Shown here: one piece after another, positions 3,001 to 60,566 of the stretch
Position numbering within the stretch: position 1 is the first letter of the stretch
Layout: the number at the start of each line of letters is the position of its first letter
Assembly (NCBI GenBank): GCA_030674455.1
Contig: JAUSGQ010000029.1
Location: 6,625 to 70,624, forward strand
DNA length: 64,000 nucleotides
Direction: 5' to 3'
Source of the DNA: a bacterium
GTDB taxonomy: Bacteria > Patescibacteriota > Minisyncoccia > Phycocordibacterales > UBA2100
Position numbers and translations under genes: made by a program
Notes under the pieces: model-generated
What the model saw: the letters and a program-made list of their open reading frames with translations, nothing else
Told to the model about the DNA's origin: nothing
Database searches by the model: none

Positions 3001-6000
3001 CAACGTCGGCATCGGAACATCTTCTCCATACGCCATGCTCTCGGTGGCAGGCCAAGTTGTCGGCACTTACTTCACCGCCACATCCACAACACTGGCTAAC
3101 ACCTTCCCATACGCAAGCACGACCGCGCTCACCGCAAGCGGAAACGCATACCTCGGCACAACGACCATCACAAACCTCGCCGTCTCCAACACGAGTACAT
3201 CAACATTCGCTGGCGGGCTCCAATCTACATATCTAAACATCACAGGCACAGTGTCGACATCAACATTCGCCAGAGGTATTGACCTCTCCGGCGGATGCTT
3301 CTCGGTGAATGGCACATGCGTCGGCGGTTCTTCCGTCACGGGTACGACCGGACAGCTTACATACTTCAGCGATACGAATACTGCCGTAGGCACATCCACG
3401 CTCTTTGTCTCCACCGCGAGCAACGTCGGAATCGGAACAACGACGCCCAACTGGACGCTGACATCTTCCAACTCAACAGGCCCTCAGCTTTCCCTCGGCG
3501 ATGGCTCCAACAACTCATGGACATTCAGAAACTCCGGCGCGACACTGTATCTCGCGACTTCCACATACTCCGCCACTTCAACAACAGCGGCTCTTGCCTT
3601 CAACAACTCCACGGGTGCCGCGACATTCGGCTCTCCCGCCACATCAACATTCACAGGAGGAATAACATCTACATACCTGAACATCACCGGCACAAACGCC
3701 ACTTCAACATTCGCTAGAGGAATTGACATCGCGGGCGGATGCTTCGCGATAAATGGAACGTGCGTGGGCGGCTCGTCGCTCACAGGCACCACCGGACAGC
3801 TCGCATACTTTAGCGGTACAGACACCGGAGTTGGAACTTCCACACTATTCATCTCCACAGCAAGCAATGTCGGCATCGGGACGACGACGCCGGGAGCAAC
3901 TCTCACAATCCAAGCCGCTCTCAACGCGACACCATTCATAATTGCATCCTCCACCGGCGCGACGATGCTCTCGGTAGACACGACCGGCGCGCTTTCGGCC
4001 AAATTAAAACAACTCACTGCCGATTACACCGTTGATTCCTCCAGTGCAAGCATCAGTGTCGGCGACGTCGTTTCGTATATCAATGGGAATGCGAAGAAAG
4101 CTAATGCCGTTGTCCCAGGCACCACCATCACCGCCGGCACTCCAGTCGCCGCCAATGCCGTCGCCTCCTCACCCGTCTCCGCCACCACCCTTGACGCCAC
4201 CCACTTCGTGGTGGCATATTCGGGTACTTCAGGCTATGCCAATGCTGTCGTAGGCACCGTCTCCGGCACAACCATCACATACGGCACTCCCGTCGCCCTA
4301 AACGCCGTCGCCTCCACCTACACCTCCGCCACCACCCTTGATTCTACCCACTTTGTGGTGGCGTATAGAAACGGAAGTACAGGCTACGCCAATGCTGTCG
4401 TATCCACCGTCTCCGGTACCACCATCACCGCTGGCACCCCCGTTGCCCTGAACGCCGTTGGCTCCACCTTACAGAATTCAAACTCATCAGCAGTCGCCGC
4501 TCTTGACTCCACCCACTTCGTGGTAGCGTATCGGAACGATGATACCACTTATGCCAACGCCGTCGTCTCCTCAGTCTCCGGTACCACCATCACCGCCGGC
4601 ACTCCCGTAGCGTTGAACGCCGTCGCCTCCAGCTACACCGCCACCGCCTCCCTTGACGCCACCCACTTCGTGGTTACGTATAAGGGCGCCTCAGGCTACG
4701 CCAATGCCGTTGTATCCTCAGTCTCCGGTACCACCATCACCGCCGGCACTCCCGCGGTTCTTAATGCCATCAATTCTTTCTACTCAAATACCGCCTCCCT
4801 TGACGCCACCCACTTCGTGGTAGCGTATTATAACGCGACAACAGGCTTCGGTGACGCCGTCATCTCCTCAGTCTCCGGTACCACCATCACCGCCGGCACT
4901 CCCGTGGCTCTTAATGCTGTTACCTCTACCTCCTACTCCGTCAACGCTCTGGACTCCACCCACTTTGTGGTTGCGTATAATGGCACATCAAACTACGCTA
5001 CCGCCGTCGTTTCTATCGTCTCCGGCACCACTTTCACTCCCGGCACTCCCGTGGCTCTTAATGCCGTTGCATCTGGGTTACATTCCGTTGCGGTCATAGA
5101 CGCCACCCACTTTGTGACGGCGTATCAGAACAACGTTACAACCTACGCTGACGCCGTCGTCTCTAGTCTCAATACCGTTATCGCCGCTGGTACTAACATT
5201 CTCGGCATGGCCACCAACGCTACGACGAGTACTAATAATACGATTACAGTTGCCTCCAACGGCATCGTGACAGGTCTCTCCGGTCTTACCGCTGGAAGCA
5301 CCTACTATTGGAATGGGGCGCTTACCACCACTGCGAGCACCAACTACCCCGTCGGAATCGCGCTCACCACCACCTCAATGCTTCTCAACTCCGGCAATCG
5401 CGGTGCGAGCGCGAGTACCGACCAATTCTTCGGCGATATGATATTCGCCAACAACTTCCGCATCACGGAGAATCAGAGTCTGCCCAACTCGCTCATCTTC
5501 AAGAACCAGCTCAGCCGCGACATCATGTCGCTGGACGAAAACGGCAACATTGCTCTTTCCGGGTTGCTCACGGCCTCCAATATCGGACCGAACATTTTCA
5601 ACCTGCTTGGCACGACTACTATAGATGAGCTCACGGCTTCGACCACCTTGACAAGCTCGGGGCAAGCAAGCACAACACCCACATGGGCAGGGGCGTTCGC
5701 AGACGCGAGTGATACGCTCAAGAGCGCTCTGCAAGAGTTCTCCGACGCGGTAGTTCAAGTCTTCGGCCGGGCAATCTACGCGACAGCGGGCATATTTGAA
5801 AAAATATTTTCAAAAGAGGTGCACACAGACAAACTCTGCGTTTCAGATTCGGAAGGGGAGACATGCGTTACGCGCGCCCAGCTTGATGTGCTTCTTGCTT
5901 CAGCTGCGACTGGAGCCGCTTCCGCCGAAGGCGGAAGTGGCGAAACAGCCAGCTCAACAGTGAGTAGCAGTACTGCCACATCTTCGGATTCTTCCGCGTC

Positions 6001-6486: not shown

Positions 6487-7506
6487 ATGAAGAAAAAAAA
6501 TAAACTTCCTGACAATCAAATAACATTTTATGAATCACCCGACGGAACGGTGAACATTGAAGTGTTATATGCTGAAGAAAACATTTGGCTTACTCAAAAA
6601 AGAATGGCCGAGCTCTTTAATTGTTCCACAGACAACATTTCGCTTCACTTAAAGAATATTTATCAGGAAAATGAAGTTGACCAAAAATCAACTACCGAGG
6701 AATTCTCGGTAGTTCAAAAAGAGGGAGAAAGAAAGATTGCTCGAAAAGTCACTTTTTATAGTCTCGAGGCCATTATCGCCGTAGGGTATCGAGTAAGCTC
6801 CGAGCGCGGAACACAATTTCGCCAGTGGGCAACGGGCATTTTGAAAAAGTATATCCACAAGGGGTACTCGCTGGATGTGAATCGAATGAAATACGGCTCT
6901 CGTTTTAGCACAAGATATTTTGACGAGCTGTACGAAGAAATCAGAGATATCCGTACGGGTGAGCGGATGATGTATCAAAAAATCACCGATATTTATGCAA
7001 CGGCAATCGATTATTCGCCAAAAGCACATGAGAGCAAAGAATTTTTTGCCACCGTACAAAACAAACTGCACTTTGCCATAACGGGAAAAACTGCGGCAGA
7101 AATTATCACAGAGCGAGTAAGCAGTAAAAAAGACAAAATGGGATTAACGTCTTGGCGATGCTCTCCGAGAGGGAAAATTATGTCAAGCGACACCGTCATT
7201 GCCAAAAATTACTTGGACAAAAAAGAACTAGAACATTTGAACCGCATTGGAAATATGTATTTGGACTATGCTGAATTACAAGTGGCTCGGAGCAAAACAA
7301 TGACTATGAAGGATTGGATAAAAAAACTCAATGCCTTTCTCAAATTTAGCGAATATGAGATTTTGACGAACGCGGGAAAAATATCGCACGAGGTGGCAGT
7401 AGTTTTAGCAGAGCGTGAGTATGGAAAATACCGCGCGATTCAAGACAAAAATTACATTTCTGATTTTGACCGTGAAGTGAAGAAACTACGCAAAAAAACG
7501 CCATGA
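6487..7506 (+). CDS. RhuM-family virulence-associated protein (putative DNA-binding)
   Basis: N-terminal 'ITFYESPDGTVNIEVLYAEENIWLTQKRMAELF...ISLHLKNIY' is the hallmark start of RhuM-family proteins. Confidence 0.8.
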   Translation: MKKKNKLPDNQITFYESPDGTVNIEVLYAEENIWLTQKRMAELFNCSTDNISLHLKNIYQENEVDQKSTTEEFSVVQKEGERKIARKVTFYSLEAIIAVGYRVSSERGTQFRQWATGILKKYIHKGYSLDVNRMKYGSRFSTRYFDELYEEIRDIRTGERMMYQKITDIYATAIDYSPKAHESKEFFATVQNKLHFAITGKTAAEIITERVSSKKDKMGLTSWRCSPRGKIMSSDTVIAKNYLDKKELEHLNRIGNMYLDYAELQVARSKTMTMKDWIKKLNAFLKFSEYEILTNAGKISHEVAVVLAEREYGKYRAIQDKNYISDFDREVKKLRKKTP

Positions 7507-8981
7507 AAAACTTCACCCAAAAAACATTCGGGATTGTCACATCACTTGCGTTAGTATTCGGGCCATTCATAGCACTCGCTCCGAGCGCGAGCGCGGCCTC
7601 CTATGTCAACATCGCAGTCCCCTCAAATACCAGTCTTACCGGAGGACTCTTGCTCTTCTACACTCTTGACGGCACGAAATTCTCTACCACCACCGTCACC
7701 GACATGAGCGGGAACGGGAAGACTGGGACGCCTTCTGTGGCAAGATCGGCTGTTGCGGCCGCGGCGGCACAAGGACAACAAGCATACACAACCGCACAAT
7801 CTACAAGCTGGACTGCTCCCGCCGGAGTAACGAGCGTGAGTGTGGTTTGCGTTGGAGGTGGTGGTAGTTGGGGATCGTACGATGATGGAGAAACACTTTA
7901 CATCAGGTCAGCTGGTGGGGGTGCTCTTGCTTATGCTAATAATATAACAGTAGTGCCAGGTAATGCATATGATGTAGTTGTCGGTAATCATGCACCATCT
8001 AACGGAGGTGTTGGCAATCCCGGTGGAGCAAGTTCCTTTAATGTTACCACATGCAAAGCAAATGGTGGTGGGAGTGGAAGCAACACGTCATCTGCGACAC
8101 ATGGATTAGGCGGAACGGTGGTGTATGGAACTGGTGGAAGTGGAGGTAACGGTGAACAAACTGGCCTCATGTCTGCTGGCGGTGCTGGTGGATATTCGGG
8201 CAATGGCGGCGCAGGCGGGAACGCGACCGGAGGAAATGGCAGTGGTGGAGGTGGAGGAGGAGGTGCTTATGCGGGAGGGATAGGACGTGCTGGTGGGGGT
8301 GTTGGTATTTTAGGGGAGGGAACAAGTGGGGCTGGCGGCACTTCTGGTACTCCCGATGGCGGAGGAGGATCTGGTGGAGGAACGGGGGGAAATGGAAATA
8401 ATATATATGGAGGCGCACCCAAATATGGTGACCTTGCGGCAGTAGGTGCCGTTCGCATCATCTGGGGCACCAGTCGCTCATTCCCATCTACGAATACTGG
8501 GGATATGTCGACAGTCGAGGGAGTCGCGGGAGTCGCCACCACCACAGCCCCCCTCAAAACCACCGGTAAAATCGGCCAAGCCATCAAGTTTGATGGAATC
8601 ACTGCGAGCACCACCGTCGGCAATGTATCCTCATCAGTAAAGTCAGTCGCATTCTGGGCCAAGGTCGCCACCTCAACTACCCAGCAGAACATCATTGACC
8701 TCAACGGCAGTGGAGCAAATATTGAAATCGTAAATGGCGTTGTCACCGCCAACGGCTTCACCAGCCCCACTATATATGTAGACGGAGCAGTAACTTCTAC
8801 CCTCAACAACACCAACTGGCACCATGTAGTAATCACCACCGGCACGAATGTAAACGCCAGCAACGTCTCTCTCGGCGTCGCCTCATCAACCTACTTCGGC
8901 GGCTCTCTAGACGACCTCCGCATCTATAATAAGGCACTATCTGCAAGCGAGGTGAGGAGACTGTACGGATTGGGGAACTAA
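7503..8981 (+). CDS. Secreted glycine-rich protein with C-terminal LamG/concanavalin-A-like lectin domain
   Basis: Signal peptide (MKNFTQKTFGIVTSLALVFGPFIALAPSASAAS). Long GGxGG-rich region introduced by 'WTAPAGVTSVSVVCVGGGG', paralogous to 'YTTPASTSYIVVEVWGSGGGG' in the giant protein. C-terminal 'SLDDLRIYNKALSASEVRRLY' is typical of Laminin_G_3 domains. Confidence 0.65.
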   Translation: MKNFTQKTFGIVTSLALVFGPFIALAPSASAASYVNIAVPSNTSLTGGLLLFYTLDGTKFSTTTVTDMSGNGKTGTPSVARSAVAAAAAQGQQAYTTAQSTSWTAPAGVTSVSVVCVGGGGSWGSYDDGETLYIRSAGGGALAYANNITVVPGNAYDVVVGNHAPSNGGVGNPGGASSFNVTTCKANGGGSGSNTSSATHGLGGTVVYGTGGSGGNGEQTGLMSAGGAGGYSGNGGAGGNATGGNGSGGGGGGGAYAGGIGRAGGGVGILGEGTSGAGGTSGTPDGGGGSGGGTGGNGNNIYGGAPKYGDLAAVGAVRIIWGTSRSFPSTNTGDMSTVEGVAGVATTTAPLKTTGKIGQAIKFDGITASTTVGNVSSSVKSVAFWAKVATSTTQQNIIDLNGSGANIEIVNGVVTANGFTSPTIYVDGAVTSTLNNTNWHHVVITTGTNVNASNVSLGVASSTYFGGSLDDLRIYNKALSASEVRRLYGLGN

Positions 8982-13664: not shown

Positions 13665-14291
13665 TTAGTATTTCTTCTGCGTAATTCTGCGTCCGTTCAG
13701 CGATGGGCCGATAGGTTTGGTATCGGCACCTGTAGACGGTCTGCGTCGTGTCGCTTTTTGCGACACGAAGTGATTCCAATTGTCTTTAGCAAAACGGCCG
13801 GTTTTTTTATAATTCTGTTTCGGCGGAGAGGATATTGTTGAAAAAGTTATCTGCGCTATCTCCATACCGGGGCGCAAAATTATCGGAATGTTGTTCTGGT
13901 TGGTGATTTCAAAAGTGATGTTCAAAAAGTGACCCGGGTTTATTATGCCCGCCGTGTTGTGTATCATCAGCCCGACGCGGGCGAGGGATGACTTGCCACC
14001 TACCTGTATAAGGTAGTGGTCGGAGCCGAAAAATTCTTTAGAAATTCCGAGGACAGAAACTCCGGGGTGAAGCACAAATTCTTTCCCGTCTTTTATATTG
14101 ATTTCGCGCGTTTTTGCATAAATCTTTTTAACAGGGTCAACAAACTGCGAATTGTTCTCATCGTTGACGATGAATTTGTTCCCGAGCAGGATGTCGTACG
14201 AAACCGGCTGGAGCCGCGTTTCCTGGAATGGCTTGATGATAATCTCGCCGCTTTTTACCGCTTTCTTTATATCGACGTCTGACAAAAACAT
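13665..14291 (-). CDS. dcd: dCTP deaminase
   Basis: 'MFLSDVDIKKAVKSGEIIIKPF...VSYDILLG' dCTP deaminase/dUTPase fold start. Confidence 0.8.
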   Translation of the reverse strand: MFLSDVDIKKAVKSGEIIIKPFQETRLQPVSYDILLGNKFIVNDENNSQFVDPVKKIYAKTREINIKDGKEFVLHPGVSVLGISKEFFGSDHYLIQVGGKSSLARVGLMIHNTAGIINPGHFLNITFEITNQNNIPIILRPGMEIAQITFSTISSPPKQNYKKTGRFAKDNWNHFVSQKATRRRPSTGADTKPIGPSLNGRRITQKKY

Positions 14292-56298: not shown

Positions 56299-56350
56299 AT
56301 AGGGAAATAGATGAAATTGAGGATGATTGAGATACTTCCCGTTTGAGTTG

Positions 56351-56386
56351 TTCTATTCCAGTGTTTTGCAAAACACTGGAATAGAA
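56351..56386. promoter_or_regulatory. 36-nt perfect palindrome ttctattccagtgttttgcaaaacactggaatagaa, 6 nt upstream of the ArsR-type regulator gene
   Basis: Perfect dyad. Further copies at 56646-56675 and 57479-57530. Confidence 0.6.
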
Positions 56387-56391
56387 CTAGA

Positions 56392-56676
56392 ATGTTAAGA
56401 ATGGCAAATCGCAGTTACCGCACCATAGAACGCATCGTGAAGGGTTACGCCAACCACCGGCGGTTAGAGATATTAGATTTATTGCGCAAGGAACCGGAGC
56501 TTTCTGTGGAGGACATCTCTGAAAAACTGAAGATCGGGTATCAGAATGCTTCCGACCATATTCGCAAGCTTTCAATCGCGGGCCTTGTGGCCAAGCGGAA
56601 CGAGGGTCCAAGCGTTCGACACAAGCTTACGCCTCGGGCAGAGTCTATTCTAGTGTTTTGCAAAACACTGGAATAA
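56392..56676 (+). CDS. ArsR-family HTH transcriptional regulator (94 aa). Its last ~10 codons are encoded by a copy of the palindrome
   Basis: 'HRRLEILDLLRKEPELSVEDISEKLKIGYQNASDHIRKLSIAGLV'. Confidence 0.7.
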   Translation: MLRMANRSYRTIERIVKGYANHRRLEILDLLRKEPELSVEDISEKLKIGYQNASDHIRKLSIAGLVAKRNEGPSVRHKLTPRAESILVFCKTLE

Positions 56677-56717
56677 GAAGAGCGGCGGATGAGATTGTGA
56701 TATTTGCTTCATGTGCT

Positions 56718-57467
56718 ATGGAAACTTCAATCCGGCCAAAATACGATTTGGACAAAATAAAGTTTTCCACCGGTTCGCCGACATGGGAACGCGCGGTTGA
56801 ATTGTTCGAGAAGGGAAAGGTAACGAAATTTCAGGACAATGAAGGCTCATATTCGGCAACTGTCATTGGCACAAAACCGTATGAAGTTTGGGTATCTGCG
56901 GAGAAATTCGACGTAGGAGACTGCAATTGCTATCTCGGGCAGAAGGATGAATTATGCAAACATCTTGTTGCACTTGCGATACGGGTTGTAACTGGTGGCA
57001 ACTCGCTTTCTGAGAAACAAAAAAAGATGGTCGCTGTGCCTATTTGTAGTGGCAGGGAGGGAGAACTGGATAAGGAGAAGTTACAATCTGTGCAGACCGC
57101 AATTTCCGTGGCAATGAAATGTATCAAGGCCTATAACGGACCATCACGCACGTGGTTTATATATCAGGCTTCGCTCGCGGAAGGATGCACTCGCCTTGCC
57201 GCCACTTTTTCCGAATTACCCGTGAGCGAGCAAACTGCACAAATCGTCTTAAAGACACTTTTGCGTCTTGATGAAAAGCTTTGCCGAGGCGGAGTGGATG
57301 ATTCCGATGGCGCTGTCGGCGGTTTCATAGAGGACGCGGTCAGTATGCTCCTAGAGTATGTGAAATTAGAGCCATCATGCATAGGCGCATTTGAAATACT
57401 CAAAGGTCAATCGACGTGTTTCGAGTGGGAAGAGCCGCTCTTGAAAATCTCCAAAAGAGAAGGGTAG
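56718..57467 (+). CDS. SWIM zinc-finger domain protein
   Basis: 'DCNCYLGQKDELCKHLVA' = C-x-C-x9-C-x-H SWIM signature. Start taken at METSIRP. Confidence 0.6.
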   Translation: METSIRPKYDLDKIKFSTGSPTWERAVELFEKGKVTKFQDNEGSYSATVIGTKPYEVWVSAEKFDVGDCNCYLGQKDELCKHLVALAIRVVTGGNSLSEKQKKMVAVPICSGREGELDKEKLQSVQTAISVAMKCIKAYNGPSRTWFIYQASLAEGCTRLAATFSELPVSEQTAQIVLKTLLRLDEKLCRGGVDDSDGAVGGFIEDAVSMLLEYVKLEPSCIGAFEILKGQSTCFEWEEPLLKISKREG

Positions 57468-57478
57468 CTTACGACTTC

Positions 57479-57530
57479 TCTATTCCAGTGTTTTGCCCAC
57501 CAGAGGTCGGCAGGCAAAACACTGGAATAG
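57479..57530. repeat. Third copy of the ccagtgttttgc...gcaaaacactgg palindrome, with an 18-nt insertion in the loop
   Basis: Seen in sequence. Confidence 0.85.
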
Positions 57531-57670
57531 GGGAAATGGGAGAAAGGAATAACGGGTTTCGTAAAGATGCTCCCTGTTTGTCCACGCATTGCGTGGCTAC
57601 AAACAGCAGGTCTATCGGTTCATGATAGACACCTGTAGACGGCCCGCAGGGCATGTACTGCGGGTAAGAT

Positions 57671-59131
57671 TTGTGGGATGATTTGTCTATGATTCCTCCC
57701 GAAAAAGTGACTCTATTGGAAAGTCTGGTATTTGGGCAGCGAGTGGCTGAAGAAGAGCCCCGTCTGGAGGAGTACTTTGTTGAAACTTTGCTTTGGCGAA
57801 AGATTTTGCGTGGGGAAATAGACATCGTGTACGGAATGAAAGGGTCCGGAAAAAGCGCAATTTTCCATCTTCTGACAACTGGTCGAAATATGCCCGCTGG
57901 CATCAGGGTAATTCCTGCGGAGTATACTCGTGGAACGCCGGTTTTTAATGCAATAAAAACCGATCCACCTCCATCAGAAGTTCAGTTTGTGTATCTCTGG
58001 AAGCTGTATGTACTTTCACTTATTGCGAACGACGCCGAGATATTGAAAGTTCTCAAAAGCGATCACGCAGAACTTGTAGCAGAACTAGGTTCGGTGGGTG
58101 TAATTGGTGAGGATAAGGGTGAAATTCTAAAAAAAGCTCTACGGTATGTAGATACCATAAAAATACCCAATCTCGTCGAAGTGGGAATTAGTCACTCACA
58201 GGAGGCAGAGGACAAAAGAATAAATGTAGATCGAGCGATGGACGTACTTAATCATATTTTATCAAAAACAGGAAGTAACGTGTGGGTCTTGTTCGATCGA
58301 CTGGACTCGGTGTTTGATGATAACTCAGGTCTTGAAGAAAACGCACTCCGGGCATTATTTAAGACCTACAGAGATTTCTCAAGATACGATCATATATGTC
58401 TCAAGATATTTCTTCGTACCGATATCTGGAAAGCATTAACCAGTAAGGGATTTCGGGAGGCAAGTCACATAACGCAATCCGAAACAATTGAGTGGTCGGA
58501 GGTAAACATCGTAAACCTCATTGTCAGGCGCATTCTTAGCAATCCAAATATTGCCACTTTTTACCATGTTGTGCCAGAGCAAGTATTGGCCAATTATGAC
58601 GAACAGAAGAAGCTCTTTTATAGAATATTTCCAGATCAAATTGACGCAGGTTCAAGAAAGTCGGAAACCATAAGATGGTTGATGACGCGGGTGGGGGATG
58701 GAACACGACAGGTTGCACCTCGCGAACTCATTCATCTCTTAAATCAGTCGAAAGATGAGCAAATCAAAGCGTTGGAGCTTGGTGAATCTGTACCTGATGG
58801 AGAACATCTCTTTTCACCAGCAGCTATGAAAAGAGCATTGCCCGCAGTATCTCAAGTTCGTCTGGAACAAACTATCTTTGCTGAATACCCCAATTTGAGA
58901 CAGCACATTCTCATGCTGGAGAGCGAGAAAGCAACACAAACTCTCGAAACATTATCGAAAATCTGGAACGTGGATGAAGGGGAAACACTTAAAATTGCGT
59001 CAACCCTAGTTGAGATTGGTTTCTTTGAGCTACGTGGAGAAAAGAGAAAGCCGGAGTATTGGGTACCCTTCCTCTATCGGCCTCATTTAAAATTGATTCA
59101 GGGCAAAGCGGAGGAGGATGAATATGCTTAA
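57671..59131 (+). CDS. Uncharacterised P-loop NTPase (Walker A GMKGSGKSA, Walker B VWVLFDRLD); candidate defence/toxin-system ATPase
   Basis: Walker motifs seen. No confident family assignment. Operonic with a zeta-toxin-like gene. Confidence 0.5.
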   Translation: MWDDLSMIPPEKVTLLESLVFGQRVAEEEPRLEEYFVETLLWRKILRGEIDIVYGMKGSGKSAIFHLLTTGRNMPAGIRVIPAEYTRGTPVFNAIKTDPPPSEVQFVYLWKLYVLSLIANDAEILKVLKSDHAELVAELGSVGVIGEDKGEILKKALRYVDTIKIPNLVEVGISHSQEAEDKRINVDRAMDVLNHILSKTGSNVWVLFDRLDSVFDDNSGLEENALRALFKTYRDFSRYDHICLKIFLRTDIWKALTSKGFREASHITQSETIEWSEVNIVNLIVRRILSNPNIATFYHVVPEQVLANYDEQKKLFYRIFPDQIDAGSRKSETIRWLMTRVGDGTRQVAPRELIHLLNQSKDEQIKALELGESVPDGEHLFSPAAMKRALPAVSQVRLEQTIFAEYPNLRQHILMLESEKATQTLETLSKIWNVDEGETLKIASTLVEIGFFELRGEKRKPEYWVPFLYRPHLKLIQGKAEEDEYA

Positions 59132-59294
59132 AGCCATTTTGTTGCGGTATTGCAAACTCTCTGTCCAAAGTTCTTCTTGACGCGCATCATAAGCTTGATT
59201 GGGCAGTTGACGCCTGCTATGGCAAAAGAAATTTCAAATCTGAACCGGAGCGATTGGAGTTTTTGTTTGATTTATACAAGAAACTAACAAACGT

Positions 59295-60008
59295 ATGAAT
59301 ATAATCAATGAGGATAAAGAGCTTGCGGAGAGGGCGATGATTTGGGTTAAGCAGAATCAAAGACAGATTGTTGAAGATTTTGCTGGAAAGTTTCTTCCTG
59401 CTCCGGAACAAGCCGTATCAATCTTCATGGCAGGTTCACCGGGGGCCGGTAAAACTGAGTTCTCTCGACGCTTAATCGAAAAACAATTCGGCGCAGAGAA
59501 CAAATATATTATGCGTATTGATGCAGATGAAATTCGTTCGAAACTACCGTGTTATGTGGCAGGCAAATCGCATATTTTTCAACCTGCTGTTTCCGTTGCG
59601 GTTGAAAAGATACACGATCACGCCTTAGGCACGGGTAAAAGTTTCGTCTTGGATGGGACACTTACCAACCTAAAGAAGGCGCGCGACAATATTAAAAGGT
59701 CTCTTGAGAAGTCTCGGGTGGCATTCATCGAATATATCTATCAGGACCCCATCGTTGCGTGGGATTTCACCCAAAAAAGGGAGGCAGTGGAGGGTAGAAA
59801 TATTCCGCGGGATGCGTTCATAGACCAGTTCTTCCTTGCCAGAGAGAATGCTACAATTCTGAAGAGAGAGTTTGGGAAAGATATCACTCTCGACGTCGTC
59901 ACAAGGAACATCAGTACTAATGAGTACAAGTATTGGTTTAACGTTGACAATGTTGACAGCTGTATAAAAGATGAGTATAGTAAGGACCAGCTTTTAAAGA
60001 ATTTATGA
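59295..60008 (+). CDS. Zeta-toxin-family P-loop kinase-like protein
   Basis: 'IFMAGSPGAGKTEFSRRL...YIMRIDADEIR' parallels the zeta/PezT Walker A plus downstream catalytic Asp motif (GGQPGSGKT...IDNDTFK). Confidence 0.6.
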   Translation: MNIINEDKELAERAMIWVKQNQRQIVEDFAGKFLPAPEQAVSIFMAGSPGAGKTEFSRRLIEKQFGAENKYIMRIDADEIRSKLPCYVAGKSHIFQPAVSVAVEKIHDHALGTGKSFVLDGTLTNLKKARDNIKRSLEKSRVAFIEYIYQDPIVAWDFTQKREAVEGRNIPRDAFIDQFFLARENATILKREFGKDITLDVVTRNISTNEYKYWFNVDNVDSCIKDEYSKDQLLKNL

Positions 60009-60238
60009 AAGACTTTATTTACATTATCAAGTCTCTTTTCAAAAGAGAGGAGATAAAGATGCTTCCCAAGGTAAACCATAAAGAGGAAGTAACTGACCCC
60101 GTGTATCACTTTTTTGTGCATGGAAAAGCAATCGAAAGAAAGCGTGTATACGATAAGGCTCTTAAGGCTGCAGAAGCAGACCAAAAGGAAATCATTCGGA
60201 AATACAAATTACTTGAAAAGGATTTAGCGTCTGCGTAG
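60005..60238 (+). CDS. Small hypothetical protein (77 aa), translationally coupled (ATGA overlap) to the zeta-like gene
   Basis: ORF with overlapping start/stop. Predicted helical/coiled C-terminus. Confidence 0.4.
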   Translation: MKDFIYIIKSLFKREEIKMLPKVNHKEEVTDPVYHFFVHGKAIERKRVYDKALKAAEADQKEIIRKYKLLEKDLASA

Positions 60239-60566
60239 CCGCCCAGTGTCCGGCGATATTCTCAATTGCTGCCACTGCGTCCGTCTTGAGAATTGGTCGA
60301 CGAGGTGGGCGTCGGCACTTGTAGACAGGCCGTCTACAGGCGAATCAGTAGATTTCGTAGCTTGGCCTGCCTATCTCAACCCCATAGGCCACGATTTTCC
60401 ACAGTCTTCAAGATTGCACAAAAATACTGTGTGATATAGTGCGGTCGTGTCAGCACAAAAACCCACCCGTCCACAGGCGAATCAGCAGATTTCGTGGCTT
60501 GGCCTGCCGATATCTGTCCTATCGGCCACTGCGAAAAAGCATGCGGGAGTGCGCCGCGTAATCAGG

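Follow-up and report, generated by a model that had tools for sequence, protein, structure and literature searches.

Introduction

Do three genes that lie on one strand, within a single block of low GC (guanine plus cytosine) content, also act together? The question is raised by a segment at 57.6-60.3 kb of a 64,000-nucleotide stretch of DNA from a bacterium of the Patescibacteriota (GenBank assembly GCA_030674455.1, contig JAUSGQ010000029.1, positions 6,625 to 70,624 of the forward strand), which is referred to here as the window. Between arginine biosynthesis genes and ppsA, this segment carries three open reading frames (ORFs) that an original prediction, made from the sequence, had described as one operon for an undescribed toxin or defence module, consisting of a P-loop ATPase of no recognisable family, a zeta-toxin-like kinase and a small, translationally coupled ORF. 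The explanation favoured here, which we hold with somewhat more confidence than doubt, is that the segment is an acquired, AT-rich patchwork in which a solitary ATPase and a toxin-first, zeta-type toxin-antitoxin (TA) pair have become joined over the relic of another gene, and not one operon-encoded system.

The predicted layout itself is correct, in that the ORF listing of the window places three co-directional frames on the forward strand at 57671-59131, 59295-60008 and 60005-60238 (NCBI locus tags in this region are Q7S01_04845 and Q7S01_04855). The first reads as 486 amino acids (aa) from a TTG codon, and as 480 aa from the ATG at 57689 in the NCBI and Logan gene calls (57689-59131). Public gene callers also start the kinase later, which yields 223 aa; homologues and a confidently modelled N-terminal helix support the long form of 237 aa. 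The stop codon of the kinase gene and the start codon of the small gene overlap in the sequence ATGA (60005-60008), as had been noticed, and the partner that the small ORF encodes is real and conserved.

The impression that the segment is richer in AT than its surroundings also holds when measured. Specifically, the GC fraction of the cassette is 0.425 against a mean of 0.499 (standard deviation 0.025) for the window, the lowest among 548 segments of the same size, and GC at third codon positions is 0.40-0.46 in the cassette genes compared with 0.54-0.63 in argJ, argB, argD and ppsA; the tetranucleotide distance of the cassette is within the top 7%. By GC content, overall and at third codon positions, the segment is compositionally foreign and was probably acquired horizontally. 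The nearest relatives of both the ATPase and the kinase come from Patescibacteria-type metagenome-assembled genomes (MAGs). The arrangement is also present in an independent assembly, the 3007-nt Logan contig L001 (SRR13727527), which is 100% identical to positions 57490-60496 of the window.

Two units joined across a gene relic

The most direct evidence on the three-gene question comes from other genomes. ATPase and kinase genes of these families co-occur in none of 227 loci (0/80 ATPase loci in genomes, 0/83 kinase loci in metagenomes and 0/64 viral loci), and the only other case in which they are adjacent is the identical contig L001. Within 6 kb on either side of the 80 ATPase genes there is no match to the kinase, to the small ORF, to the MmeI tail described below, or to the genes for an ArsR-type regulator and a SWIM zinc-finger protein that precede the ATPase gene in the window. 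At the DNA level, homology to relatives of the ATPase is confined to 57701-59120 and homology to relatives of the kinase to 59309-60237; it stops at the gene borders, and the segment therefore consists of two separate units that are joined across the DNA in between.

This DNA had been taken as an empty gap of 160 nt between the two genes, and is in fact a coding remnant. Positions 59134-59298 on the forward strand read in frame 3 as an open stretch that ends in LLDAHHKLDWAVDACYGKRNFKSEPERLEFLFDLYKKLTNV followed by a stop codon, and the translation of 59155-59292 matches the Pfam family PF20467 (MmeI_C) with 48.8 bits (cutoff 27; E-value 8.1e-13) over profile positions 35-80 of 83. With tblastn the same stretch also finds annotated MmeI enzymes of type IIL that are encoded on plasmids, which it matches at their C-termini. 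The nuclease domain at the MmeI N-terminus and the helicase-like, methyltransferase and target recognition domains are absent, so that a tail is all there is, and the frame has no start codon, being closed upstream by a TGA at 59119-59121. Since the other MmeI domains and a start codon are lacking, 59134-59298 can be identified as the truncated tail (about the last 46 codons) of an MmeI-type restriction-modification gene and not as a gene in its own right. Its TGA stop codon (59296-59298) overlaps the ATG of the kinase gene (59295-59297).

A similar tail is found next to a related kinase. In locus L005, where the kinase gene is 57% identical to that of the window, the same kind of MmeI tail precedes it with the same overlap of stop and start codons, there in the form of a 41-codon, ATG-initiated ORF (7876-7998) coupled to the kinase start. 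The differences between the two tails are mainly synonymous (nonsynonymous divergence dN 0.42, synonymous divergence dS saturated), which suggests that each is the product of its own truncation of a functional MmeI gene, one that formerly stood directly upstream of a kinase pair. In two further loci (L143, 2000-2086, and L145, 1479-1598, both on the reverse strand) the C-termini of MmeI genes lie just past the small gene, as the ends of convergent genes. Altogether, these cases point to a recurrent association of the kinase pair with type IIL restriction-modification genes, with no intact MmeI-kinase locus seen among the loci examined. The relic marks an earlier neighbourhood of the kinase pair, and it illustrates how the accidental joining of two adjacent genes can be recognised from the remains of a third gene in the gap between them.

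The three-gene system is consequently not real as a conserved entity. The original prediction had named observations that would speak against it: neither membership of a housekeeping kinase family nor a GC content like that of the flanks was found, while the lack of conserved co-occurrence, also named, was found for the ATPase.

The zeta-type kinase

The kinase (59295-60008, forward strand) was rightly recognised as zeta/PezT-like. It matches Pfam PF06414 (Zeta_toxin) with 101.4 bits (gathering threshold 22.3; E-value 5.8e-29) over profile positions 10-188 of 199, and its homologues fill about 2,700 protein clusters at 90% identity, many of them labelled Patescibacteria. A search of the PDB with the single sequence gave no matches, whereas the family profile found PezT (1.6e-7), followed by L-seryl-tRNA(Sec) kinase (PSTK; 1.4e-6) and also Pnkp1; a weak match to phrog_505, a polynucleotide kinase family, has an E-value of 4.8e-5. 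The AlphaFold2 model of the protein has a pLDDT (predicted local distance difference test) score of 93.4, and a Foldseek search with this model returned the zeta toxin (1gvn, E-value 1.7e-8, template modelling (TM) score 0.70; 1gvn and 3q8x together, E-values of about 2e-8 and TM 0.67-0.70) and PezT (2p5t, TM 0.63-0.69), then ng_zeta1 (the gonococcal zeta1) and AvrRxo1 (TM 0.57-0.60). Polynucleotide kinases and PFK-2 kinase domains are on the same list. Helices at the N-terminus of the model span residues 3-30.

Sequence identity to zeta and PezT is 14-17%. The Walker A motif and the IDADEIR motif nevertheless align to K45 and D66 of PezT, so that K53 is the Walker A lysine and D78 the catalytic aspartate, both invariant in 27 homologues, and E104 is the equivalent of PezT E99. 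A difference lies in the substrate-binding motif GTXR, which binds UDP-N-acetylglucosamine (UNAG) (PMC6362051): the kinase has D120-G-T-L-T-N125 in place of E115-G-T-L-R-T120 of PezT, in which the glycine and threonine are kept and the arginine is absent. With a family consensus of DGTLSN, the arginine is replaced by serine or threonine throughout the family, and because this UNAG-binding residue is missing family-wide, the substrate is probably one other than UNAG. A new substrate may be found for this branch, as happened with AvrRxo1 and NAD.

A conserved partner downstream

The 77-aa product of the small gene (60005-60238, forward strand) is a basic protein with an isoelectric point (pI) of 9.5, and is regarded here as a putative antitoxin. 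It belongs to no Pfam, NCBIfam, PADLOC or PHROG family, and only nine close relatives are present in a set of 5.8 billion proteins; the wider family was recovered only by translating the DNA downstream of kinase genes. In this way, a small ORF was found after the kinase in 81 of 83 metagenome loci (the contigs of the other two end too early), always on the same strand, 41-78 aa in length and starting between -23 and +37 nt from the kinase stop codon, with -4 as the commonest distance. An iterated hidden Markov model (HMM) recovers 75 of these 81 ORFs and none of 405 shuffled controls. The partner also stands beside the kinase on 42 of 45 closer viral contigs. The protein of the window has the conserved core DPVYHFFV...ERKRVY..AL..AE.DQKE, and the core common to the family is FSDF..xAS..EKKKVY..AL..A..DQ.

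Selection on the small gene could be measured against a sister MAG (GCA_030647595.1, locus L002) that carries a 79%-identical kinase pair. In this comparison, the one used because dS is saturated in more distant pairs, dN is 0.10 and dS 1.79, a dN/dS ratio of 0.056. The small gene is thus real and under strong purifying selection. In the four nearest neighbourhoods (L002-L005) an ORF of 75-78 aa always overlaps the kinase stop codon, with 46-83% identity among these ORFs, and it is the upstream gene that varies: a 193-aa or 232-aa protein without known function in L002 and L003, dnaN in L004, and a TspO-family gene plus the MmeI tail in L005. Nor does a third component accompany the pair, as no Pfam family appears more than three times among 140 neighbouring genes, which comprise scattered restriction-modification and Fic genes amid housekeeping genes. 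Many copies of the pair lie among the housekeeping genes of reduced genomes.

The pair is frequent in ultra-small genomes of the Patescibacteria type and occurs also in proviruses and on plasmids of culturable bacteria, which makes it accessible to experiments. On plasmid pSA70-4 of Shewanella putrefaciens (CP078041.1; locus L238, 833-3211), for instance, a zeta toxin family protein and the 54-aa 'hypothetical protein' QXN27572.1 (small-protein HMM, 8.9e-19) are encoded with a DUF3596 integrase gene on one side and a tyrosine-recombinase fragment on the other. The small partner has a pI of about 9.5-9.9. The Shewanella copy would be a convenient model in a culturable host. No description of the pair was found in a literature search on zeta toxins in Patescibacteria and on zeta toxins whose antitoxin is encoded downstream. 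What sets it apart within the zeta type is the reversed gene order, the new partner family, the altered substrate motif and a predicted promoter embedded in the putative toxin gene.

A predicted promoter within the kinase gene

The best promoter-like site of the region is located within the kinase gene. It is a sigma-70-type sequence, TTGACA-17-TATAGT, at 59953-59981 on the forward strand, which matches the consensus at 11 of 12 positions and ends 24 nt before the ATG of the small gene. Of 102 non-redundant kinase genes, 54% have a match of at least 10/12 within their final 70 nt, as opposed to 0.5% of internal windows (Fisher p ~1e-54). Upstream of the kinase gene such a match is found at only 9% of loci, and in the window a promoter scan of the region found no consensus promoter directly 5' of it.

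As the promoter region also encodes conserved residues, a test on synonymous codons was chosen. The aspartate codon within the -35 box is GAC in 83 of 86 genes, compared with 35% elsewhere in the same genes (p = 2e-32), and the isoleucine codon before it is ATT in 69 of 72, compared with 46% (p = 3e-19); the tyrosine codon in the -10 box has no significant synonymous bias. Because codon choice is biased at both GAC and ATT, the -35 hexamer is itself under selection at the nucleotide level, and the site would then serve the small partner gene as a promoter of its own. Evidence from synonymous sites thereby leads to a concrete regulatory prediction.

A mechanism can be proposed on this basis. 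The pair would be a type II TA or addiction module that belongs to the zeta superfamily and has its toxin gene first, the kinase being the toxin and the 77-aa protein the antitoxin. Through translational coupling at the ATGA overlap and its own promoter in the 3' end of the kinase gene, the small partner would be made in excess, and would probably bind and block the kinase. When the element is lost, or when transcription is shut off (e.g. by a phage), the partner would decay and leave the kinase free to arrest the cell, probably by phosphorylating a substrate other than UNAG. We infer toxicity, neutralisation by binding, the substrate and any role in defence; the analysis itself establishes the family memberships, the fold, the conservation of residues and of the pair, purifying selection on the small gene, selection on the -35 box, the lack of linkage between ATPase and kinase, and the foreign composition.

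Comparison with known systems

The pair shares a number of properties with epsilon/zeta and PezAT, namely the fold, membership of PF06414, the Walker A lysine and the catalytic aspartate (K46/D67 in zeta, K45/D66 in PezT), the equivalent of PezT E99 and a location on mobile DNA. It differs from them in the replacement of the GTXR arginine by serine or threonine, in the dedicated promoter predicted within the kinase gene, in the low identity given above, and in its partner, which is encoded downstream and belongs to a new family of basic proteins of 41-78 aa unrelated to epsilon or PezA. That the layout does not resemble epsilon/zeta had been anticipated; no epsilon or PezA gene was found immediately upstream of the kinase, the place being taken here by the MmeI relic and elsewhere by varied genes.

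The closest validated layout is that of AvrRxo1:Arc1, in which a zeta-superfamily NAD kinase toxin is followed by a validated antitoxin encoded downstream (PMC4938570). Both are toxin-first with a small protein just downstream (Arc1 homologues are mostly 81-98 aa; PMC4938570), and both have a GC content below that of the host, variable flanks and a zeta-like fold with a pocket for something other than UNAG (PMC4938570; the latter likeness being predicted here). The kinase of the window is smaller (237 aa versus ~420 aa) and has no type III secretion context. The likeness is one of fold only, since chains of AvrRxo1 are not among the PDB matches of the kinase profile at E <= 0.1, and neither the 77-aa sequence nor the family alignment contains the Arc1 motif KExFD(x25-27)(Y/L)ExxYY (PMC4938570).

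Two other systems have one of the unusual properties each. Rv0366c of Mycobacterium tuberculosis lacks GTXR and is still a neutralisable toxin, for which a non-UNAG substrate has been proposed (PMC6362051). Like the present kinase, it is zeta-like and keeps the residues that bind nucleotide as well as its catalytic aspartate without GTXR (PMC6362051), whereas its ribbon-helix-helix antitoxin Rv0367c is encoded upstream and the system is restricted to Actinobacteria, in contrast to the downstream partner of another family found here. In mqsRA, where the toxin gene is also first, promoters within the toxin gene drive the antitoxin, uncouple its expression and give antitoxin excess (PMC6918082). 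The same regulatory logic is suggested for the kinase pair by sequence statistics; the proteins are unrelated (mqsRA encodes an RNase toxin and a zinc/helix-turn-helix antitoxin), and the promoter is predicted here, not mapped. For the MmeI family of type IIL enzymes, the comparison is limited to the tail (the last 46 positions of MmeI_C), as the rest of the enzyme is absent.

The solitary ATPase

The protein encoded at 57689-59131 can be placed, contrary to what had been supposed. It scores 208 bits (cutoff 75) against the NCBIfam model NF047389, 'P-loop ATPase, Sll1717 family', over profile positions 1-427 of 454, and 353 bits against the whole length of phrog_14159, a family of phage proteins without assigned function; there is also a partial match of 81.8 bits to the PADLOC candidate PDC-M28C. 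Both NF047389 and PDC-M28C are matched by 17 of 17 homologues. No match to PDC-M28A or PDC-M28B exists among the five island proteins, so that the multi-gene PDC-M28 system is incomplete. The Walker motifs that had been pointed out are confirmed by residues invariant across the 17 homologues: G49, K51, G52, G54, K55 and S56 in Walker A (GMKGSGKSA), and W199, D203, R204, L205 and D206 in Walker B (VWVLFDRLD). An AAA+/STAND-like core makes up the first part of the architecture, and the C-terminal part is helical and winged-helix-like. Searching the PDB with the sequence profile gave generic P-loop and ABC-type matches only.

A possible function is indicated by DS-41, an experimentally validated anti-phage protein that works as a single gene of ~502 aa; the present protein likewise has ~500 aa and stands alone. 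Against the DS-41 equivalog model NF053860 (DS41_1) it scores 39 bits (E-value 5e-10), far below the cutoff of 370, with the best-scoring match restricted to residues 15-63, that is, the N-terminal stretch through Walker A; 17 of 17 homologues match. It can hence be described as a distant homologue of DS-41 and not a member of that family, and through this homology it is a reasonable candidate for a single-gene anti-phage protein. A literature search on Sll1717 and PDC-M28 returned no papers, and no member of the Sll1717 family with a tested function was found.

The distribution of the gene is that of an independent element. There are 184 relatives in 185,579 species genomes, at 40-48% identity in very distant phyla, and further relatives, again with no kinase nearby, on 14 IMG/VR viral contigs. 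The ATPase is a solitary gene in each of the 78 loci analysed, with no recurrent partner and no neighbour family in more than two loci, and the orientation of its neighbours is near random (same strand in 41 of 75 cases downstream and 49 of 75 upstream). The most plausible view is that it is an independent element, mobile or defence-type, made up of a single gene of the kind found in prophages and defence islands. A few neighbourhoods can be mentioned for their gene order. In Candidatus Jorgensenbacteria (L010-L013, ~7430-8589) a 61%-identical homologue of the ATPase is followed by a gene with a SocA_Panacea antitoxin domain, which overlaps the ATPase stop codon in most gene calls, and then by a 146-aa ORF, so that a different TA-like pair occupies the position of the zeta pair here; in Kaiserbacteria the ATPase gene is followed after 169 nt by one for a 225-aa protein without assigned function.

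Weighing the explanations

Several points weigh against the patchwork explanation or parts of it. Since the DNA from the ATPase gene to the kinase gene has no predicted terminator in this genome, the three genes may be co-transcribed here and their products may interact locally; the ATPase may thus now supply read-through transcription to the kinase, which would itself be a consequence of accidental juxtaposition. The promoter is predicted from sequence statistics, and selection on TTGACA could reflect some other DNA or RNA signal. No similarity to epsilon, PezA or Arc1 was detected in the partner, which is basic, and its antitoxin role is assigned from gene layout only. In sequence the kinase family lies only slightly further from PSTK than from PezT, which leaves room for a non-toxic role as a kinase of nucleic acids or metabolites. 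Possible co-transcription also speaks for a single three-gene toxin or defence system, in which the ATPase would be the sensor or regulator and the kinase the effector: besides the missing terminator and the missing promoter directly 5' of the kinase gene, all three genes are in a single low-GC block, and the ATPase fold resembles those of the defence ATPases RdrA, BrxC and Avs. The absence of any such combination from 227 loci, the intervening relic, homology that ends at the gene borders, the solitary and near-randomly oriented ATPase, and the completeness of the kinase pair without the ATPase in every other locus examined make this the least probable of the alternatives. It has also to be considered that the Sll1717 ATPase is a modular sensor that recruits whichever TA-like effector lies downstream, as the Panacea gene and 146-aa ORF of Jorgensenbacteria, the unassigned 225-aa protein of Kaiserbacteria and the zeta pair of the window might be taken to imply. 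With the downstream gene on the same strand in little more than half of the loci, no neighbour family in more than two, a junction that indicates accidental juxtaposition and a distant validated relative, DS-41, that works as a single gene, this is very improbable.

The remaining alternatives concern the pair itself. It might consist of a non-toxic kinase (acting on a nucleotide, a cofactor, a sugar nucleotide or RNA/tRNA ends) and a small adaptor, regulator or substrate-presenting subunit, carried as accessory or counter-defence cargo. The family-wide loss of the GTXR arginine, the similar profile distances to PSTK and PezT, the matches to Pnkp1 and phrog_505, the polynucleotide kinases and PFK-2 domains in the Foldseek list, a partner as basic as a nucleic-acid binder would be and the many copies amid housekeeping genes of reduced genomes would all fit this description. 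The top matches in both fold and sequence are nevertheless the toxins zeta and PezT, with ng_zeta1 and AvrRxo1 next by fold, and strict coupling, a separate and strong promoter that serves the second gene and a variable plasmid or provirus context are typical of reverse-order TA systems (PMC6918082, PMC4938570), for which reason a non-toxic kinase is judged unlikely, though a serious alternative. Another option is that the small protein is a transcriptional regulator only, like omega in omega-epsilon-zeta, and that the kinase is restrained in another way, be it a low level of expression, an intramolecular mechanism or a host factor. A small, basic partner with its own predicted promoter would suit this option, and the N-terminal helices of the kinase are without an assigned role. 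Inhibition in cis, of the EzeT type, occurs among zeta toxins. No DNA-binding family is detected in the partner, and both the ATGA coupling and the near-universal co-inheritance argue for matched amounts of the two proteins, so that this option is more improbable still than a modular sensor; Arc1 is a direct precedent for a protein inhibitor encoded downstream (PMC4938570). Within the patchwork explanation, a more far-reaching proposal is that the pair represents a large, overlooked branch of zeta-type TA or abortive-infection systems with a non-UNAG target and a new antitoxin family whose promoter is embedded in the toxin gene, and that the recurrent coupling to MmeI hints at a combined restriction-plus-kinase defence; this is put forward tentatively, as a possibility that we would not expect to hold in full.

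Border elements and neighbouring sequences

Short 'ctgtagacgg' repeats had been noticed at the borders of the segment, and they are real. The sequence CTGTAGACGG is found at 57633 on the forward strand and at 60330 on the reverse strand, and the two copies lie within a longer, perfect inverted repeat of 13 nt (57632-57644 and 60328-60340); in 500 shuffles of the border zones the longest inverted repeat was 11 nt. On the left, the arm is part of an element at 57610-57644 (forward strand), made up of the hairpin GTCTATC-N7-GATAGAC and then ACCTGTAGACGGCC, and on the right it is held in the hairpin CTTGTAGACAGGCCGTCTACAGG at 60318-60340. The border motif, which can be written as C[AG]CCTGT[AG]GACGG, is present again at 13730, where a similar copy of hairpin plus motif occupies 13715-13742 in an unrelated part of the window. 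The left element recurs also in the sister MAG (L002, 5720-5754 on the reverse strand), with its stem kept and its loop changed, in a region (5689-5772) that lies ~2.2 kb upstream of the kinase pair of that genome and is nested in a larger inverted repeat, CCCAGGGTGTTTTTA...TAAAAACACCCTGGG. Since it is found at 13730 and in the sister genome as well, the border motif is not specific to the cassette, and hairpin and motif together look like a lineage-specific repetitive extragenic palindromic (REP)-like or protein-binding element.

Transposon-type terminal inverted repeats with a target-site duplication were considered for these borders and rejected, because the 13-nt arms have no flanking duplication, genes for a transposase or integrase are absent from the cassette, and copies of the motif are present elsewhere in the genome as well as in the sister MAG. 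No integrase or transposase is present among the island ORFs either, and no tRNA or Rfam RNA that could be an integration site or a regulatory RNA was found in the whole window.

A 63-nt direct repeat with two copies on the forward strand (60330-60392 and 60467-60529; 84% identity, 93% in a 42-nt core) is situated in what is either the ppsA leader or, as annotated, the 5' end of that gene. Its second copy falls within the start of the listed ppsA ORF (GTG at 60447). Because the conserved PpsA N-terminus, VGGKNASLGEM, begins further downstream than this copy, the true start of ppsA is probably later and both copies would be leader DNA. The repeat may have arisen, or been picked up, at insertion as the duplicate of a promoter or leader. 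Contig L001 ends on this side inside the second copy, upstream of ppsA, and on the other side inside the third copy of a palindrome described below; as the contig breaks exactly within them, these two repeats are therefore assembly branch points, possibly because the population includes variants that have the cassette and variants that lack it.

The palindrome in question, GTTCTATTCCAGTGTTTTGCAAAACACTGGAATAGAAC, is 32-38 nt long and occurs in three copies (56350-56387, 56644-56675 and 57479-57530, the third interrupted by a 15-nt insert) that flank the genes for the ArsR-type helix-turn-helix protein (56392-56676) and the SWIM zinc-finger protein. It is absent elsewhere in the window and in the other loci fetched, with the exception of contig L001, which duplicates the window. 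An identity as integron attC sites was set aside, as the perfect palindromes, read by eye, run GTT...AAC and do not have the R''/R' sites of attC. Because its first copy overlaps a promoter-like site, the palindrome is a candidate operator for the ArsR-type protein, which would put one such site ~160 nt upstream of the ATPase gene. The SWIM gene (56658-57467, probable start ATG at 56721) encodes a protein of 248-269 aa whose Pfam score of 19.1 bits is just under the cutoff of 19.6. The N-terminal 90 residues match the PADLOC single-gene candidate PDC-S62 (1.6e-14, positions 5-96 of 566), and the GC content of the gene, 47%, is intermediate between that of the island and that of the flanks.

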